The notes under the pieces are model-generated. The model was given only the letters and a program-made list of their open reading frames with translations. It had not been told where the DNA came from and ran no database searches. The position numbers were made by a program, and so were the translations under genes. 26,528 nucleotides of DNA from the IMG/VR virus record IMGVR_UViG_2563366972_000005, positions 1-26,528 of that record. The stretch is one strand, 5' to 3'. The DNA is from a virus (Duplodnaviria; Heunggongvirae; Uroviricota; Caudoviricetes). Shown here piece by piece: positions 10,249 through 26,528 of the stretch. The stretch's first letter is position 1. The number at the start of each line of letters is the position of its first letter.

Positions 10249-11007
10249 ATGAGGAACATAATGGCTGGTTTTTTAATATTCCTGTCTTCTGCTGCTTATG
10301 CTGATATCAATCTGTATGGTCCTGGTGGCCCGCATACAGCCTTGCTTGATGCAGCCAAACTTTACACCAAAAAAACAGGTATTATAGTGAACGTTCATTA
10401 CGGCCCACAGAACAAATGGAATGAAGATGCAAAAAAAAATGCAGATATCTTGTTTGGCGCATCAGAACAATCTGCTCTGGCTATCATTCGGGACCATAAA
10501 GACAGCTTCAGTGAAAAAGATATTCAGCCTCTTTATCTGCGAAAAAGTATTTTACTGGTAAAGAAAGGTAATCCTAAAAATATCCGGAGTATTGACGACC
10601 TGACCAGACCCGGGATTGGCATAATTGTTAATGATGGTGGTGGTACCAGTAATACATCAGGCACTGGCGTCTGGGAAGATATTGCCGGACGTAAAGGGAA
10701 TATAGAAACTGTCGCCGCAATCCGAAAAAATATTATTTTATATGCGCCCAATAGCGGAACTGCACGTAAGGCTCTTGAGAATCAGCCTGAAGCAGATGTC
10801 TGGATAACCTGGGCTGACTGGGCAGCCAGTAATCCAGGAATTGGTGATGTCGTGGAAATAGCGCCAGACTACGTGATATGGCGTGATATGAACATTACAG
10901 TACGTCAGGATGCAAATGATGAAACCCGTCGATTTGCAGAATGGCTACAAACCGATGAAGCGGCGCCTGCATTCAAAAAATATGGCTGGACCAGGAAAGG
11001 CACTTGA
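10249..11007 (+). CDS. Solitary periplasmic substrate-binding protein, ModA/WtpA-like (type 2 PBP fold), with signal peptide
   Basis: 252 aa; N-terminal signal peptide (MAGFLIFLSSAAYA); ModA-like landmarks (INLYGPGG...ALLDAAKLYTKKTGIIVNVHYG, ADILFGASEQ, C-terminal FKKYGWTRKG versus ModA FKRYGFT); AAAGGAG Shine-Dalgarno; AT-rich; no permease or ATPase partner nearby. Confidence 0.7.
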   Translation: MRNIMAGFLIFLSSAAYADINLYGPGGPHTALLDAAKLYTKKTGIIVNVHYGPQNKWNEDAKKNADILFGASEQSALAIIRDHKDSFSEKDIQPLYLRKSILLVKKGNPKNIRSIDDLTRPGIGIIVNDGGGTSNTSGTGVWEDIAGRKGNIETVAAIRKNIILYAPNSGTARKALENQPEADVWITWADWAASNPGIGDVVEIAPDYVIWRDMNITVRQDANDETRRFAEWLQTDEAAPAFKKYGWTRKGT

Positions 11008-11154: not shown

Positions 11155-11346
11155 GCGAAAACGGTTTGCTGTAACGGCAGAGTTAAGTAGAATTGCTGCG
11201 GGTGCTTGAGGCTATCTGCCTCGGGCATGAACACCAACGGCAGATAGATAAAAGCCCCACCCGACTATAAATCGAAGTGAGGCCCCTATATGCTCGTCAC
11301 ATATAGATTGCCTCTTACGGACCGAAAGGTCAAGGAGAAGCAGGCT

Positions 11347-11502
11347 ATGAAGCAGCAAAAGGCGATGTTAATCGCCCTGATCGTCATCTGTTTAACCGTC
11401 ATAGTGACGGCACTGGTAACGAGGAAAGACCTCTGCGAGGTACGAATCCGAACCGGCCAGACGGAGGTCGCTGTCTTCACAGCTTACGAACCTGAGGAGT
11501 AA
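11347..11502 (+). CDS. hok: Hok/Gef-family type I toxin (small membrane-depolarising peptide)
   Basis: 51 aa MKQQKAMLIALIVICLTVIVTALVTRKDLCEVRIRTGQTEVAVFTAYEPEE; close match to the Hok signature (...LTRKSLCEIR...REVAAFMAYE...); single TM helix; highly structured upstream leader. Confidence 0.85.
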   Translation: MKQQKAMLIALIVICLTVIVTALVTRKDLCEVRIRTGQTEVAVFTAYEPEE

Positions 11503-13011: not shown

Positions 13012-13386
13012 ATGCGTATAGAGTTTGTTTTGCCTTACCCGCCGACGGTGAACACCTACTGGCGTCGTCGTGGCAGTACATATTTTGTATCAAAAGCCGG
13101 TGAGCGTTATCGCCGGGATGTGGCACTTATTGTTCGCCAGCAGCGACTGAAATTAAACCTGTCCGGAAGGCTGGCGATAAAGATTATTGCAGAGCCACCG
13201 GATAAGCGCCGTCGTGACCTGGACAATATTCTGAAAGCTCCACTGGATGCACTGACGCATGCGGGACTACTCATAGACGACGAGCAGTTTGATGAAATTA
13301 ATATTGTGCGCGGTCAGCTCGTTCCAGGTGGGCGGCTGGGCGTGAAGATTTACGAAATAATGCATGACGGGCAGGTCCAAAAATGA
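13012..13386 (+). CDS. rusA: RusA Holliday-junction resolvase (crossover junction endodeoxyribonuclease)
   Basis: 124 aa; YPPTVNTYWRRRG...RRRDLDN...LIDDEQ... parallels E. coli RusA (WPPSNNRYYR...RRRDLDN...WLDDAQ). Confidence 0.9.
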   Translation: MRIEFVLPYPPTVNTYWRRRGSTYFVSKAGERYRRDVALIVRQQRLKLNLSGRLAIKIIAEPPDKRRRDLDNILKAPLDALTHAGLLIDDEQFDEINIVRGQLVPGGRLGVKIYEIMHDGQVQK

Positions 13387-14204
13387 AACTGGAAGATTTA
13401 CCGAAATACTATTCTCCAAAATCGCCAGGCCTGACTGATGCGCCCATCTCGACGTCAAAAGATGCGCTGAGTATCACTGATGTAATGGCTGCGCAGGGTA
13501 TGACACAGAACCGGGCTGAGATGGGATTTTCCGCGTTCCTGGGAAAAATGGGCATTAGTATGAATGACAGGATGCGGGCAACAGAATTACTGGCAGATTA
13601 TGCATTAAGTCGGTGCGATCGCGTCGCGGCGTTAAGGAAACTCCCGGCAGAAATAAAACCGGCAGTGATGCGCATTATGGCTTCGTATGCTTTTGAGGAT
13701 TATGCCCGTAGTGCAGCGAGCAAAAAGCAGTGTCCTTGTTGCCGTGGGGAAAAATTTATTGAAAGCGAAGTTTTTACAAACAAGGTTCTGTATCCGGATG
13801 GTAAGCCGCCAGTATGGGCAAAGTGTACAAAAGGGGTGTATCCGTCTTACTGGGAAGAATGGAAAAAAATCCGGGAGGTGGTGAAAGTTTTCTGTCCTGA
13901 ATGTAAAGGGAAGGGGGAGATTTCGACCGCCTGTAAAGACTGCCGTGGGCGTGGTGTTGCCATTCATCGTGAAGAGTCGGAAAAACGGGGTATGCCTGTA
14001 ATCAGGAACTGCCAGCGTTGTGGCGGTCGGGGCTATGAAAGACTACCATCAACGGAGGCATTTAATGCCATACGCAAAGTGACGAGTGCTATCACGCTTG
14101 ATACGTGGAAAAAATCAGTGAAACGCTTTTACGATACGTTGGTGGTTCGGTTTGACATTGAAGAGGCATGGGCGGAGCGGCAGTTAAAGAGGGTAACGCG
14201 ATAG
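13383..14204 (+). CDS. Late-gene antiterminator Q-like protein with DnaJ-type CxxCxGxG zinc-finger repeats
   Basis: 273 aa; start overlaps rusA stop (ATGA); four CxxC motifs (CPCCRGEKF, CPECKGKGE, CKDCRGRGV, CQRCGGRGY); immediately upstream of a pR'-like promoter and tR'-like terminator. Confidence 0.65.
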   Translation: MKLEDLPKYYSPKSPGLTDAPISTSKDALSITDVMAAQGMTQNRAEMGFSAFLGKMGISMNDRMRATELLADYALSRCDRVAALRKLPAEIKPAVMRIMASYAFEDYARSAASKKQCPCCRGEKFIESEVFTNKVLYPDGKPPVWAKCTKGVYPSYWEEWKKIREVVKVFCPECKGKGEISTACKDCRGRGVAIHREESEKRGMPVIRNCQRCGGRGYERLPSTEAFNAIRKVTSAITLDTWKKSVKRFYDTLVVRFDIEEAWAERQLKRVTR

Positions 14205-14443: not shown

Positions 14444-15163
14444 ATGGGTATGGATGACAGCACTCTGCTGAGGAACTCTTCACTTTTTATTGCTTATATG
14501 GGCTGTCTTGGATGGGGAAGCGCTTATTTCTATGGATGGGGGACTTCCTTTTACTATGGCTTTCCATGGTGGATCGTCGGGGCTGGCGTTGATGATGTGG
14601 CTCGAAGTTTGTTTTATGCTGTGAGCGTTATCGTTATATTCCTTACTGGATGGGGAGTAGGTATTGTTTTCTTTTTAGGCATAAAACAAAAAAACAATAT
14701 ACAGAATTTGAGTTTTATCAGACTTTTTCTGGCAATATTGCTGCTTTTTATTCCGCCTGTTCTGGAGTTTTCGGTAATTCATCAGCACGTTGAGCCAGAT
14801 GTGCTGTTTTTTTGTGTTATTGCTGCCTTTACAATTACGCTTTTTGTCAGGTCAGGAAGAAGACTTATTTCAGTCAAATGTTTTTCGGAAGTGTCTTTTA
14901 TTCGCCATCACCGAATTGAGTTTATTATGGCTGGATTCATGATTTATTTCTGGACATTCTCTCTTATTGCCGGTTGGTATAAACCCCAGTTTAAGAGGGA
15001 ATATCAGACGATCCACTATGAGAATACCTGGTATTACGTTCTTGCACGCTATGATGATCGTCTGGTTTTATCGAAATCGTACAGTAATGGGAGTTCTGCA
15101 TTCGTTATACTTAATAGCGGGCAGATTGATGACTTTGAAATTAATGTAGTCAGAGTTCGTTAA
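14444..15163 (+). CDS. AT-rich integral membrane protein (about 5 predicted TM helices plus ~60 aa soluble C-terminal domain), function unknown; first gene of the late operon
   Basis: 239 aa; hydrophobic segments SLFIAYMGCLGWGSAYFYGW, LFYAVSVIVIFLTGWGVGIVFFLGI, FIRLFLAILLLFIPPVLEFSVI, VLFFCVIAAFTITLFV, FIMAGFMIYFWTFSLIAGWY; markedly lower GC than flanking phage genes. Confidence 0.65.
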   Translation: MGMDDSTLLRNSSLFIAYMGCLGWGSAYFYGWGTSFYYGFPWWIVGAGVDDVARSLFYAVSVIVIFLTGWGVGIVFFLGIKQKNNIQNLSFIRLFLAILLLFIPPVLEFSVIHQHVEPDVLFFCVIAAFTITLFVRSGRRLISVKCFSEVSFIRHHRIEFIMAGFMIYFWTFSLIAGWYKPQFKREYQTIHYENTWYYVLARYDDRLVLSKSYSNGSSAFVILNSGQIDDFEINVVRVR

Positions 15164-15285: not shown

Positions 15286-15361
15286 GGCCCTTTAGCTCAG
15301 TGGTGAGAGCGAGCGACTCATAATCGCCAGGTCGCTGGTTCAAATCCAGCAAGGGCCACCA
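15286..15361 (+). tRNA. tRNA-Ile2 (anticodon CAU, lysidine-type, reads AUA), ileX-like
   Basis: Cloverleaf folded by hand: acceptor GGCCCTT/AAGGGCC, anticodon loop CTCATAA, T-loop TTCAAAT, encoded CCA; near-identical to E. coli tRNA-Ile2. Confidence 0.88.
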
Positions 15362-15362
15362 A

Positions 15363-15439
15363 CCGCCACTAGCTCATCAGGAAAGAGCGTCAACCCTTTA
15401 AGTTGAGAGTGCGAGGTTCGAGTCCCCGGTGGCGGTCCA
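15363..15439 (+). tRNA. Noncanonical tRNA-like gene (anticodon loop CCTTTAA: UUU at 34-36 but C at position 33; A.C mismatch in T-stem)
   Basis: Acceptor CCGCCAC/GTGGCGG, U8, D-arm GCTC/GAGC, T-loop TTCGAGT, encoded CCA; anticodon stem TCAAC/GTTGA. Confidence 0.55.
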
Positions 15440-15441
15440 GT

Positions 15442-15517
<76 letters not shown>

Positions 15518-15520
15518 TAT

Positions 15521-15595
<75 letters not shown>

Positions 15596-16232: not shown

Positions 16233-16314
16233 CCGTCACTAACTCATCGGGTAAGAGTGCATAACGCGTATTGTTGTTTTGTGGTGCGGGGTTCGAGTCC
16301 CCGGTGACGGTCCA
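16233..16314 (+). tRNA. tRNA-like gene / probable pseudo-tRNA, paralogous to the gene at 15363, with expanded noncanonical anticodon region
   Basis: Intact acceptor (CCGTCAC/GTGACGG), D-arm (ACTC/GAGT), T-arm (CGGGG-TTCGAGT-CCCCG) and CCA, but 28 nt between D- and T-stems instead of 23; best anticodon stem ATAAC/GTTGT gives loop GCGTATT. Confidence 0.45.
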
Positions 16315-22181: not shown

Positions 22182-23693
22182 ATGGGTTTTTTTGATAAAG
22201 CACTTGGCGCAATTGCGCCAGGGTGGGCGGTTTCGCGCGCCAGAAACAAAATGCTGCTGAGAGCTTATGAGGCGGCGCAGCCTTCACGCCTGAATAAAGC
22301 CCGGCGCGAGAGTCGCTCTGCCGAGACTGCGGTTTTTTCTGCCGGTACCTCGTTAAGGGAGCAGGCCAGGGCACTGGATGAAGATCACGATATCGTGATT
22401 GGTCTGCTGGATAAGCTGGAAGAGCGGGTTATTGGTGCGCAGGGGATCCAGGTTGAACCACAACCACTGAGAAGCGATGGCACCCTGCATGAATCGCTGG
22501 CAGAGCAGATCTCGGCATTGTGGTCTGAATGGTCTGTTCGCCCTGAGGTCACGGGGATGTTCACCCGCCCGGAGGCTGAACGGATGGCGTTGCGGTCTGC
22601 TTTGCGCGATGGTGAGATGTTCGTACAACTGGTGCGTGGTCCTGTCGCCGGTCTGAATCATTCCACTGTGGTGCCATTATCTCTGGAACTGCTCGAAGCA
22701 GATTTTGTTCCGGTCAGTCTGAACACGAATGCGGGTCAGCAAGTCCGTCAGGGCATTATTCTTAACAACTGGGGACGACCCGTAGGGTATCGGGTTTATA
22801 AATACCATCCTGCAAATATGCGCGGATTCAGCGCCGATCTCAAAACTGTTCACGCAGACAGCATGCTTCATCTGGCGATGCGGAAACGGCTTCATCAGGT
22901 GAGAGGTGTCAGCCTGTTACATGGTGTGATTCGCCGGATTGCTGACCTGAAAGATTACGAAGAATCAGAGCGTGTGGCTGCCCGTATTGCTGCCGCGCTG
23001 GGTTTCTACATTAAGCGTGGTGATGCCGCCAGCTTTCCGACGGATAACGACTGGACACCCACAGAACAAAAACCCCGGTACTTTGATATTTCACCGGGCA
23101 TGATTTTTGACGAACTGGCCCCCGGTGAAGATCTGGGGATGGTGGAGTCGAATCGTCCGAATGTTCATCTTTATGAATTCCGGAACGGGCAGTTGCGTGC
23201 TGTGGCTGCCGGAACCCGTGGCAGTTATTCCAGTATTGCCCGTGACTATAACGGTTCCTACAGTTCGCAGCGCCAGGAGCTGGTGGAAAGTTACGAAGGC
23301 TACGGGGTTTTACAGCAGTGGTTTGTCGGTCAGTACAGTCGCCCGGTGTACCGGGCATGGCTGGAGCAGGCAATACCTTTTCTTGATATTCCTCCTGATG
23401 TGGATATGTCCACACTTTTCAATGCCACTTATCTTGGGCCAGTGATGCCGTGGATTGATCCGGTGAAGGAGGCTGCAGCATGGCGGGCCATTCTTCGCGG
23501 TGGTGCCGGGACGGAGGCCGAGTGGATACGTGCCCGTGGGCAGTCACCGCAGGAGGTCAAACGTCAGCGACTGCGTGAAACTGAATTTAACCGGGAAAAC
23601 GGGCTGGTGTTCGATTCTGACGCCGCTAACGATAAAGGAGCGATCCCTGATGCAGCAAATGATAACCCCGCGTCTTCGCGGGACGATGATTAA
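22182..23693 (+). CDS. Portal protein, lambda gpB-like
   Basis: 503 aa; size and position after the W-like gene; acidic C-terminus. Confidence 0.85.
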   Translation: MGFFDKALGAIAPGWAVSRARNKMLLRAYEAAQPSRLNKARRESRSAETAVFSAGTSLREQARALDEDHDIVIGLLDKLEERVIGAQGIQVEPQPLRSDGTLHESLAEQISALWSEWSVRPEVTGMFTRPEAERMALRSALRDGEMFVQLVRGPVAGLNHSTVVPLSLELLEADFVPVSLNTNAGQQVRQGIILNNWGRPVGYRVYKYHPANMRGFSADLKTVHADSMLHLAMRKRLHQVRGVSLLHGVIRRIADLKDYEESERVAARIAAALGFYIKRGDAASFPTDNDWTPTEQKPRYFDISPGMIFDELAPGEDLGMVESNRPNVHLYEFRNGQLRAVAAGTRGSYSSIARDYNGSYSSQRQELVESYEGYGVLQQWFVGQYSRPVYRAWLEQAIPFLDIPPDVDMSTLFNATYLGPVMPWIDPVKEAAAWRAILRGGAGTEAEWIRARGQSPQEVKRQRLRETEFNRENGLVFDSDAANDKGAIPDAANDNPASSRDDD

Positions 23694-25740
23694 TCCCCGC
23701 GCCAGCCTTGCGGGGGTGGATGCCGCTAATGGTCAGTGCTGGTATGAAATCCGTGCACAGGCTGCCTGGCGGGTGGAAATTTACCTCTATGACGTGATTG
23801 GCGGATGGGGCATCACCGCGCAGCAGTTTATTGCTGACTGTAAGGATGCGGGGGTGTTTGAGGCCAGCGCTATTGATCTGCATATCCACAGCCCGGGCGG
23901 TGATGTGATGCAGGGGTTTGCCATCTTTAACACGCTGTCACGGCTGAAAGCGAAGGTGGATATCTGGGTGGATGGTGTTGCAGCCAGCATGGCCTCCATG
24001 ATTGTCTGCCTGCCTGGCGCCACAGTGCATATGCCTGAAAATTCCTGGCTGATGGTGCACAAGCCGTGGGGCGGGATCGCCGGTGATTCCGATGATATGC
24101 GTGATTATGCCGACTGGCTGGATCGCAATGAGCAGCTGATGCTGTCAGCCTACATGAATAAAACCGGACTCGGGCAGGAGGAGCTGGAAGCCATGCTGAA
24201 AGCAGAAACCTGGATGAACGGTGCAGAAGCCGTGGAAAAAGGCTTCGCTGATACGCTTGAACCTGAATTACAGGCTGCGGCCTGTGTGAATCAAAATAAA
24301 CTGAAGGATTACCATAATATGCCAGAACAGCTTAACGCGCTTTTTGCTCCGCGTGCAGAAACGACGAACGGACAGCAGCAGGAACCGAAAACAGCCCCGC
24401 AAAATGCACAACAGACAACTGCTCAGCAGGTGCCATCAACCGGAAATGTGGATATCAGCGCAATTGCTTCGCAAGTTCAGCAACAACTGATGGCAGCCAA
24501 TGCGGAACGTGTGCAGGCTGTAACTGCAATCTTTGCCTCTTTCCCGTCTTATGCCGACCTGAAAGCGGAGTGCCTGAACGACATGACCTGTACGGAAGCA
24601 CAGGCCCGTGAAAAACTGTTGCAGGCGCTGGCAGCCGGAACGACACCAAGTGCAGGTCCGGGAGCCATTCATATTCATGCCGGGAACGGTAATCTGGTTG
24701 GCGATTCTATTCGTGCGGCTGTCATGGCGCGCGCCGGATATGCTGAAGCAGAAAAAGACAATGCCTATAACGGCTTTACACTGCGTGAACTGGCGCGTGC
24801 CTCGCTGGTTGATCGTGGCATCGGTATTTCCGGACATTCCGCGCCCATGGCGATGGTCGGGCTGGCATTTACCCACAGCAGCAGCGATTTCGGCAATATC
24901 CTGATGGATGTGGCTCATAAAGCTGCGTTGCAGGGCTGGGATGATGCCAGCGAAAATTTTGACAAATGGACCCGCAAGGGAACGCTGACTGATTTTAAAA
25001 CCGCGCATCGTGTCGGGCTGGAAATTTTCCCGACGCTACGAAAAGTATTGCCGGGGGCTGAATATAAATATGTGACCCTGAAAGATCGTGGCGAACCGAT
25101 TGCACTGGCGACTTATGGTGAATTGTTCAGCATTGATCGCCAGACCATCATCAATGATGACCTGGATATGCTGACCCGTATTCCGATGGCAATGGGGGCG
25201 GCAGCGCGTACTACCGTGGGTGATCTGGTCTGGGCCGTGTTGACCAGTAATCCGAAAATGTCGGATGGCAAACCGCTGTTCCATGCAGATCATGGCAACC
25301 TTGTGACTGCCGATTTGTCTATTGAGGGGCTGGATTCCGGGCGTAAAGCCATGCTGCTCCAGAAATCGGGTGACCGTCGCCTGAACATTCGTCCTGCTTT
25401 TATGTTGACGCCTGTTGCCATTGAGTCACGTGCCAATCAACTGATTAAGTCTGCCAGCGTGCCCGGTGCAGATGCGAACAGCGGCATTATTAACCCGATT
25501 CAGAATTTTGCCACGGTTCTGTCAGAGGCCCGTCTTGATGACAGCAGCCCGACGGATTATTACCTGGTGGCAGCGCAGGGGCGTGACACGATTGAAGTGG
25601 CTTATCTCGACGGTATTGATACGCCGTATCTGGAGCAGCAACAGGGCTTTACGGTTGATGGCGCAGCATTCAAGGTGCGCATTGATGCCGGAGTGGCACC
25701 GCTTGACTGGCGTGGCATGGTCAAAGTGAAAAAACAATAA
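23650..25740 (+). CDS. Single ORF encoding ClpP-like (S14) prohead protease, Gln/Ala-rich scaffold-like linker and C-terminal major capsid protein domain
   Basis: 696 aa from ATG 23650 (AAAGGAG 9 nt upstream); ClpP landmarks HIHSPGGDVMQG, GVAASMASMI (Ser), MVHKPWGG (His); low-complexity linker; ~340 aa C-terminal domain; no separate capsid gene follows. Confidence 0.8.
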   Translation: MQQMITPRLRGTMINPRASLAGVDAANGQCWYEIRAQAAWRVEIYLYDVIGGWGITAQQFIADCKDAGVFEASAIDLHIHSPGGDVMQGFAIFNTLSRLKAKVDIWVDGVAASMASMIVCLPGATVHMPENSWLMVHKPWGGIAGDSDDMRDYADWLDRNEQLMLSAYMNKTGLGQEELEAMLKAETWMNGAEAVEKGFADTLEPELQAAACVNQNKLKDYHNMPEQLNALFAPRAETTNGQQQEPKTAPQNAQQTTAQQVPSTGNVDISAIASQVQQQLMAANAERVQAVTAIFASFPSYADLKAECLNDMTCTEAQAREKLLQALAAGTTPSAGPGAIHIHAGNGNLVGDSIRAAVMARAGYAEAEKDNAYNGFTLRELARASLVDRGIGISGHSAPMAMVGLAFTHSSSDFGNILMDVAHKAALQGWDDASENFDKWTRKGTLTDFKTAHRVGLEIFPTLRKVLPGAEYKYVTLKDRGEPIALATYGELFSIDRQTIINDDLDMLTRIPMAMGAAARTTVGDLVWAVLTSNPKMSDGKPLFHADHGNLVTADLSIEGLDSGRKAMLLQKSGDRRLNIRPAFMLTPVAIESRANQLIKSASVPGADANSGIINPIQNFATVLSEARLDDSSPTDYYLVAAQGRDTIEVAYLDGIDTPYLEQQQGFTVDGAAFKVRIDAGVAPLDWRGMVKVKKQ

Positions 25741-25812
25741 ATAACCGCCGGGCAGGGCGGTTTTTTTATGGCTGAAGCGGCGCACCGGGCGCCGCATTTA
25801 CCGGAGAAGAAA

Positions 25813-26142
25813 ATGTCAAAAAATTATGTTCAGGACGGAAAAAACGTCGACTGGCTGAATGGGACCGGAAAGGCGGTGTCATCTGGCGATCTGGTTGTTC
25901 AGGATAATCTTGTTGGTGTTGCTCACGCTGATATTCCGGACGGGGAGGCTGGCATTTTGCATACGACGGGGGTTTTCTCTTTACCTAAAGAAGCAGAAGC
26001 GCTGACGCAAGGCAAGCTGGTGTATTTCAAAGCGGATACGGCAACACTGACTGCAACGAAATCAGGTAATACGCTGGTGGGTACGGTATGGATCACAGCT
26101 GACACTGGTGATGCTACCGTGTGCGTACGTCTGGGGCACTGA
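25813..26142 (+). CDS. Small head protein (DUF2190-like; candidate decoration/cement protein)
   Basis: 109 aa from ATG 25813 (GGAGAAG upstream); occupies the lambda D position. Confidence 0.5.
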   Translation: MSKNYVQDGKNVDWLNGTGKAVSSGDLVVQDNLVGVAHADIPDGEAGILHTTGVFSLPKEAEALTQGKLVYFKADTATLTATKSGNTLVGTVWITADTGDATVCVRLGH

Positions 26143-26528
26143 TGAACAGGTTTCGACGCCTGCTTACAAACGCGGATGCCCGGATAACCCGGGCATTTGC
26201 TGAAGAGGTACCTGCATATCTGTTTCTTCAGGGAGGAGAAAAACGGCCTGTAATGGTGATATTCGAATCGCCGGATGCAACCGTCGGGATCCGTGACGGC
26301 GGTGAAATTAATGATCATGCACCAGCCTTCAGTGCTATGACAGCAGATATTTCCGGGTTAATGAAACGTGATCAGGTGGAAATTAATGCTGATGTTTTTC
26401 ATGTGACGCATATTGGCGCTGATGAGGAAGGGCGTACACGGGTTACTCTCGCGCGGGGAGAACCCGGAAGAAGTACACCTGCTGCACCGGAACGACCGAG
26501 TAAACGTTATGGCAGTCAGAGAGCATGA
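26142..26528 (+). CDS. Head-tail connector protein, lambda FII-like
   Basis: 128 aa; start overlaps upstream stop (TGATG); pattern ADARITRAF...VIFESPD...MKRDQVEI...V parallels lambda FII (ADETIRGYMG...GVFDDPE...LRRGDTLTI...V); stop codon at window end. Confidence 0.55.
   Translation: MNRFRRLLTNADARITRAFAEEVPAYLFLQGGEKRPVMVIFESPDATVGIRDGGEINDHAPAFSAMTADISGLMKRDQVEINADVFHVTHIGADEEGRTRVTLARGEPGRSTPAAPERPSKRYGSQRA

Follow-up and report, generated by a model that had tools for sequence, protein, structure and literature searches.

For actinobacteriophages, annotation routinely includes capsid-protease fusions, which one account calls "common in small-genome siphoviruses" (PMC9671004), and in phage MD8 the protease, the scaffold and the capsid protein all come from one gene, gp5 (PMC8508860). 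Fusions involving a ClpP-like protease already form a named NCBIfam family, NF045540 (scaf_prot_MCP1), the title of which is 'ClpP-like prohead protease/major capsid protein fusion protein'. Here we analyse a gene of this kind found at 23650..25740 (+ strand) of the IMG/VR virus record IMGVR_UViG_2563366972_000005 (Caudoviricetes), the whole stretch of 26,528 nucleotides (nt) being referred to below as the window. We put at about 0.85 the probability that the gene serves head assembly in a lambdoid prophage and belongs to NF045540 as a regular member, joining an S14 serine protease, a helical delta-like scaffold and an HK97-fold, Mu gpT-related capsid protein, that it is the sole capsid gene, and that it acts through the mechanism proposed below, which includes a nested product. 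The fusion architecture itself is already known, since NF045540 is a named family and the description of MD8 is in print, and the novelty that an initial annotation of this DNA had implied for it does not hold. The capsid-protease fusions carried by phages of Gram-positive hosts also unite protease and capsid in one gene and are distant in sequence from that of the window.

Nothing essential separates the window's gene from other members of the family. MD8 gp5 (56% identical to the window protein) and the proteins of F10, JBD68, LESphi2/3, cdtI, mEp460, VT1-Sakai, CP-1639 and Chris1 have the same three-part layout, with lengths of 650-700 amino acids (aa) and identities of 52-84%, and their genes follow the same order of portal, fusion, DUF2190 decoration and FII-like gene. 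The window protein scores 936 bits against NF045540 (cut-off 475), its residues 42-694 corresponding to profile positions 2-651 of 652. It misses the cut-off of a second family, NF045541 (scaf_prot_MCP2; 382 bits versus 525), which aligns only over residues 238-693, so that the scaffold and the capsid domain are shared with NF045541 while the protease differs. RefSeq applies the NF045540 name to Escherichia coli copies in 82 complete genomes. At E<=1e-10, 2919 database proteins match the window protein and both domains are present in all 120 among the matches listed, so the fusion is not a chance event; cluster representatives matching at E<=1e-30 number 3895, of which the best 150 are mostly full-length, down to 33% identity. 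The full fusion is found in about 80 GenBank phages (Pseudomonas phages F10, MD8, JBD68 and LESphi2/3, E. coli phages cdtI, mEp460, CP-1639 and VT1-Sakai, several Stx2 phages and Hafnia phage yong2). Among diverse viral-contig loci, 80 were fetched with an alignment query led by a distant sequence (single-protein searches with the distant representatives P0133 and P0168 gave only 2 loci each); 69 of these have a frame complete at its 5' end, and 66 of the 69 contain one fused frame of 614-819 codons. The order portal, fusion, decoration/head-tail joining is common to the loci of E. coli A19, Chris1, MD8, cdtI and RcKai. Product names for the family vary across GenBank (Clp protease, head maturation protease, protease/scaffold protein, head-tail preconnector protein Nu3, major capsid protein, hypothetical protein), and because fusion genes are labelled so inconsistently, phage genomes annotated with the protease name alone seem to be devoid of a capsid gene.

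The frame of the fusion gene is open from stop to stop over 23500..25740 (+), and from the ATG at 23650 it encodes exactly 696 aa plus the stop. A strong Shine-Dalgarno (SD) sequence, AAGGAG (23636-23641, +), lies 8 nt upstream of this ATG, and the equivalent start is the one annotated by RefSeq in the 92%-identical copy of E. coli A19. The single 696-aa open reading frame (ORF) of the initial annotation is thus borne out by frame, ribosome-binding site and RefSeq start, and it matches phrog_133 as well as NF045540. A second in-frame ATG at 23686, giving a start that overlaps the portal stop (23691-23693), equals the start annotated in Citrobacter phage Chris1, so the N-terminus of the protein is uncertain by 12 residues.

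The N-terminal part of the chain is a ClpP-type (peptidase S14) protease domain (residues ~43-202; 23776..24255, +). Pfam CLP_protease (PF00574) matches residues 73-202 (E 1.5e-29, 103.6 bits versus a gathering threshold of 20.2), NF045542 matches the protease part with 194 bits (cut-off 120), and solved ClpP structures from the PDB align with the domain (best E 1.3e-15). The catalytic residues would be Ser113 (codon 23986-23988, in the motif GVAASMAS) and His137 (codon 24058-24060, in the motif MVHKP), placed as in the S14 motifs GxAASM and MxHxP; both are invariant in the alignment of close relatives and 97% conserved among 131 diverged representatives, whose identity to the window protein ranges over 33-55%. 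By alignment and our own residue count, Glu186 aligns to ClpP Asp171, the third residue of the triad, and is invariant in close relatives. A full-length AlphaFold2 (AF2) model, built from 20 close homologues (at least 75% identity), has a predicted local distance difference test score (pLDDT) of 70-85 across the protease domain; its overall pLDDT is 46.6 and its capsid domain is unusable.

Beyond the protease comes a linker in which two parts can be distinguished; in the translation, Gln makes up about 20% and Ala about 21% of residues ~236-300. The first is a variable Gln/Ala/Pro-rich spacer (residues ~236-265; 24355..24444, +) with many insertions and deletions in alignments and a pLDDT below 50. 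The second is a conserved, helical, scaffold-like (delta-like) segment (residues ~266-335; 24445..24654, +), delimited by the AF2 model, by conservation and by PHROG alignments. Its helices, at residues 269-296, 299-310 and 316-328, are modelled with pLDDT 72-82 in the full-length model, and R287 is 92% conserved among the diverged relatives. We read the linker as scaffold-like because PHROG protease-scaffold families (94, 53, 2976 and 3348) align across it, up to residues 316-435. Three of these families (94, 53 and 2976) comprise the ClpP-type protease-scaffold proteins of T1-like phages, whose profiles align over window residues ~26-435 and whose capsid gene is separate.

The remainder of the chain (residues ~336-696; 24655..25737, +) is an HK97-fold major capsid domain related to Mu gpT. 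Pfam Phage_capsid_4 (PF25209) matches residues 385-693 (E 6e-51, 174.6 bits versus a threshold of 27), and Mu-like_gpT (PF10124) matches more weakly (31.4 bits versus 20.1). A profile made from 16 diverged capsid domains finds the capsid proteins of Mu (9jod, E 7e-15) and JBD30 (8rkx/8rkc, 3e-13). When residues 336-696 were modelled with these 16 diverged sequences, AF2 gave a pLDDT of 82 and a predicted template modelling score of 0.77; the model shows a beta-rich core and a long spine helix (domain residues 171-198). Foldseek returned 355 PDB matches at E<=1e-3 for this model, the top 50 all being capsids or encapsulins; HK97-fold capsids of LME-1, JBD30, Mu and HFTV1 are among the fold matches. 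The capsid proteins of Mu (gpT) and JBD30 (9jod, 8rkx, 8rkc) are thus homologous to the domain by profile and fold; they are stand-alone proteins of ~300 aa, whereas in the window's domain the region aligned with Mu gpT is preceded on its N-terminal side by about 70 additional residues that form three helices. Domain searches and structure prediction therefore agree with what the initial annotation had read from the sequence: a ClpP-like domain, a Gln/Ala-rich scaffold-like linker and, at the C-terminus, a capsid domain.

In addition to the full-length chain of ~75 kDa, the fusion gene probably gives a nested scaffold-capsid product of 473 aa (~51 kDa), without the protease, from an internal start at M224. 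The predicted initiation region spans codons 208-227 (24271..24330, +), where AAGGA (24304-24308) is followed after 10 nt by an in-frame ATG (24319-24321). We infer this product from the conservation of an SD-ATG pair, weak RNA structure, high AT content and near-frozen synonymous sites. Among 76 distinct DNA copies of the gene (the window, A19, Chris1 and further homologous loci) compared in segments of 20 codons, synonymous-site entropy is 0.28-0.35 bits at codons 201-230, versus 0.58-1.19 in every other segment, and the third positions of codons 208-227 are almost invariant. Neither an ORF in another frame nor an Rfam RNA accounts for these frozen sites, as no ORF of at least 50 aa was found across 24250-24340 in the other frames or on the opposite strand and an Rfam scan found no family inside the fusion gene. 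RNA structure is weakest, for the whole gene, in the 50 nt centred on ATG 24319 (-1.9 kcal/mol versus a gene mean of -11.4), where GC content is also at its lowest.

The same signal is seen well beyond the close relatives. We compared 33 lineages less than 75% identical to one another, taking as SD any duplex of -5.4 kcal/mol or lower. An in-frame ATG preceded by an SD is present at query positions 203-252 in 32 of the 33, as against a mean of 19% and a maximum of 45% of lineages in other 50-codon segments. Within this stretch 60% of ATGs have an SD ahead of them, versus 17% of codons other than ATG (odds ratio 7.5, p 2e-14), whereas in the rest of the gene the two are not associated (13% of ATGs versus 15% of non-ATG codons). 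RNA structure at the predicted start falls in the weakest quartile in 24 of the 33 lineages, with the median at the 5th percentile. The starts form two classes, one at ~224 (GAGGA, AAGGA or CAGGAG, then 9-10 nt, then ATG) and one at ~245-250 (AAGGAG, 6-8 nt, ATG, translating to "KEExxM"). The start at M224 had seemed to be refuted by the rarity of Met224, a verdict overturned by the DNA of the diverse loci, which have the start at other positions in the linker. An SD-ATG site is also found in Chris1, MD8, cdtI and RcKai (the last 37% identical over the capsid domain), with nested products of 465-480 aa predicted, the window's included. The paper on MD8 (PMC8508860) does not mention an internal start, and we found no description of one for the fusion family in the searchable literature.

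It seems fairly likely that this arrangement is family-wide, the locus consisting of two nested genes whose HK97 gp5-like product, a delta domain plus capsid, would exceed the protease-bearing chain and thereby set the dose of protease per prohead. Capsid domains would polymerise on the portal with their N-terminal parts pointing inward, the helical segment acting as an internal scaffold. The second and more abundant product, made from ATG 24319 (M224) following the nested-gene logic of lambda C/Nu3, would assemble on the portal together with the full-length chain, and since it does not include the protease, only some subunits would carry one. The tethered protease (Ser113/His137) would then cut off both itself and the scaffold, leaving a mature shell protein of about 30-40 kDa, the size depending on where the cut falls, to which the DUF2190 cement protein would bind.

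A number of points weigh against this interpretation. Neither N-terminal sequencing, virion proteomics or mass spectrometry, nor ribosome profiling (Ribo-seq) of any family member was found in the searchable literature. Met is present at position 224 in only 9 of 132 sequences (the query and the 131 diverged representatives), the location of the start shifts between clades (~224 or ~245-250 in the linker), and the window's own SD is just AAGGA with a spacing of 10 nt. The binomial p-values overstate independence, as the lineages are phylogenetically related. A recombination junction between a protease module and a scaffold-capsid module could alternatively be what the frozen synonymous sites mark, given that many distant matches fall into two stretches divided at ~198-250 and that the NF045541 alignment starts only at residue 238. 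As for the proteolytic steps, Glu186 is absent from the columns conserved at 85% or more across the diverged set, which makes a catalytic Ser113/His137 dyad without a third residue possible, and the predicted cleavage can be placed only within residues ~330-410, that is, between a Pro/Gly-rich hinge, GTTPSAGPG (~330), and the equivalent of the Mu gpT N-terminus (~408).

Several of these points would fit an alternative that we regard as rather unlikely, though it survives better than any other: that only the full-length 75-kDa polyprotein is made, so that every subunit bears protease and scaffold, and that the nucleotides near codon 224 reflect a recombination junction or a protein motif. There is indeed a motif around P225 (D-L-S-x-F-K-N-x-P; P225 is 95% conserved) that is kept even without Met224, but lineages that do not have this Met present AAGGAG, 6-8 nt and an ATG some 20-25 codons downstream, and the pairing of SD and ATG is specific to positions 203-252, where the density of SD sequences as such is not raised (17% versus 15%). 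Exchange of modules is suggested by the two-stretch matches of distant relatives and by the NF045541 alignment; a recombination junction does not, however, predict an ATG preceded by an SD, and in most lineages the site coincides with the gene's weakest RNA structure and highest AT content. Space in the prohead may be no obstacle to a polyprotein, as rough arithmetic of our own (assuming T=7 and ~415 subunits) suggests that ~415 N-terminal extensions of ~330 aa would fit. On balance, a nested product beginning in the linker appears to be the better account of the initiation signals.

Such nesting has precedents in head assembly. Lambda (C/Nu3) and the herpesvirus HSV-1 are established cases of nested protease/scaffold genes, and a 2026 preprint, using Ribo-seq, reports one in HFTV1. 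In Mu (gpI/gpZ), HSV-1 (UL26/UL26.5) and HFTV1 (gp17/17.5), protease and scaffold share one frame from which a short product arises by internal initiation, but the capsid gene is separate. Protease-scaffold fusions are also known from Bas13 and from P2, where gpO is a single full-length self-cleaving protein with no internal start. The lambda protease, with its C-terminal scaffold region and its nested C/Nu3 product, is the model for the internal start predicted here, while the predicted product itself would have the layout of HK97 gp5, whose capsid protein carries its scaffold as an N-terminal delta domain that the prohead protease cuts away. In the 473-aa product about 112 aa would precede the capsid domain, although the delta regions of HK97 and of the window have no detectable sequence similarity. 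The HK97 protease (gp4) is encoded by a separate gene and has a different fold (S78, herpesvirus-like).

Judging from gene content in the window and in its relatives, the fusion gene is the phage's only capsid gene. The window stops 788 nt beyond it, its last base being the end of the stop codon of the FII-like gene, and encapsulins appear among the fold matches, so that the C-terminal domain might be imagined to be an accessory or encapsulin-like protein, with the true capsid gene lying past the window. This is highly improbable. The top sequence-profile matches are the shell proteins of Mu and JBD30, the gene is placed between the portal and decoration genes, and the window was found to hold no second capsid gene. 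Two relatives, E. coli A19 (92% DNA identity) and the viral contig L004 (98% identity of the fusion protein), have after the FII-like gene a series of genes for a Neck1/tail-completion protein, a small unknown protein, baseplate V, tail sheath and tube. In Chris1 (84% protein identity), too, the genes downstream are those of neck, baseplate, sheath and tube. No other capsid gene is annotated in its complete genome (45.4 kb) or in the head region of MD8. The absence of a separate capsid gene from the initial annotation is accordingly matched by what lies downstream in relatives.

The reading that the single ORF is an artefact, in which a lost stop, a frameshift or a misassembly merged separate protease and capsid genes and left a pseudogene in a defective prophage, is the least probable of all and is already contradicted, for although prophages are often defective and the two genes are normally adjacent but separate in head modules of HK97 or lambda type, thousands of proteins, from many genera, show the same architecture without interruption, as do phages that form plaques, MD8 for example, the window protein spans nearly the entire family profile, and its catalytic and capsid-domain residues are conserved.

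The initial annotation had set the gene against lambda, a comparison that holds only as an analogy. The gpA-type terminase, the W-like adaptor, the portal and the FII-like gene follow the same order in lambda and in the window, and terminase, portal and FII-like protein belong to lambda families. For protease, capsid and decoration protein the families differ: the window has an S14 protease, a Phage_capsid_4/Mu gpT-like capsid and a DUF2190 decoration protein, while lambda has a capsid gene of its own and forms C-E fusions post-translationally. The lambda protease, gpC, is of the S49 (SppA) type, and Pfam places gpE and gpD in families other than those seen here; Pfam and NCBIfam scans of the window proteins reported no gpC-, gpE- or gpD-type Pfam family.

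Upstream of the fusion gene are found, in order, a DUF1441 protein in the position of the small terminase subunit, the large terminase, the adaptor and the portal gene (22182..23693, +; TIGR01539, 412.6 bits, and Pfam Phage_portal_2), the last 44 nt of which are shared with the beginning of the fusion gene. Directly downstream, as the initial annotation had it, a gene in the position of lambda D is followed by an FII-like gene. The former is a DUF2190 head decoration/cement gene (25813..26142, or from 25768, +; Pfam Phage_cement_2, E 2e-26, phrog_122), for which the annotation of E. coli A19 gives a 109-aa form, and the latter a head-tail joining gene (26142..26528, or from 26121, +; Pfam Phage_attach, NF049848, phrog_82). 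A pattern scan detected a terminator-like, GC-rich hairpin, AACCGCCGGGCAGGGCGGTT, with a run of seven T (25743..25769, +), which begins 3 nt past the fusion stop and lies before the start of the decoration gene or overlaps it. The hairpin is kept in three relatives (L003, L004 and A19, the last of these being locus L001) and its putative function could be that of a partial terminator or of an mRNA-stabilising element behind the most highly expressed head gene.

The fusion proteins of L003 and L004 are 98-99% identical to the window's, yet where the FII-like gene (26142-26528) begins, both loci abruptly cease to resemble the window, whereas A19, 92% identical overall, remains similar through that gene; this is a mosaic junction, and head and neck/tail modules have therefore been exchanged at the decoration/FII boundary. 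A lambda-type head (gpA terminase, lambda portal, FII-like) is combined with a contractile tail (baseplate V/W/J, sheath, tube) in L001 (15010-27029), L002 (15017-26292) and L004 (8872-12754). In the closest relatives the head module is accordingly joined to a P2/Mu-like contractile tail, while in MD8 and cdtI major tail protein or tail subunit genes are annotated, and no sheath gene, in the stretches examined.

Elsewhere in the window, four tandem tRNA genes (Met-CAT, Lys-TTT, Thr-TGT and Gly-TCC), on which ARAGORN and Rfam agree, lie ~1.1 kb downstream of the Q antiterminator gene (13383-14204). ARAGORN alone calls a fifth, a Val-AAC tRNA of 82 nt, which Rfam does not confirm; the tRNA calls cover 15286-15595 and 16233-16314 (+). 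Between the Q gene and the tRNA cluster, a 239-aa ORF (14444-15163, +) has no Pfam match. In Stx-type lambdoid prophages the position from Q to the tRNA genes is the site of toxin or other cargo genes. In the early region of the prophage Rfam gives a strong match (11200-11349, +; 103.9 bits versus a gathering threshold of 59) to sok, the antitoxin RNA in type I toxin-antitoxin systems of the hok/sok kind. The product of a gene at 10249-11007 (+) is a periplasmic solute-binding protein of 252 aa (Pfam SBP_bac_11, E 1e-34); the gene is located in the lowest-GC kilobase of the window (0.40 versus ~0.50) and looks like a prophage cargo ('moron') gene.

The fusion itself brings nothing new; what is added, modestly and in testable form, is the prediction of a nested scaffold-capsid product. 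If the nested start is true, it would explain how a phage that encodes three functions in a single frame escapes having one protease per subunit, and it would extend to a three-function gene the nested-gene strategy of lambda, Mu, herpesviruses and HFTV1.

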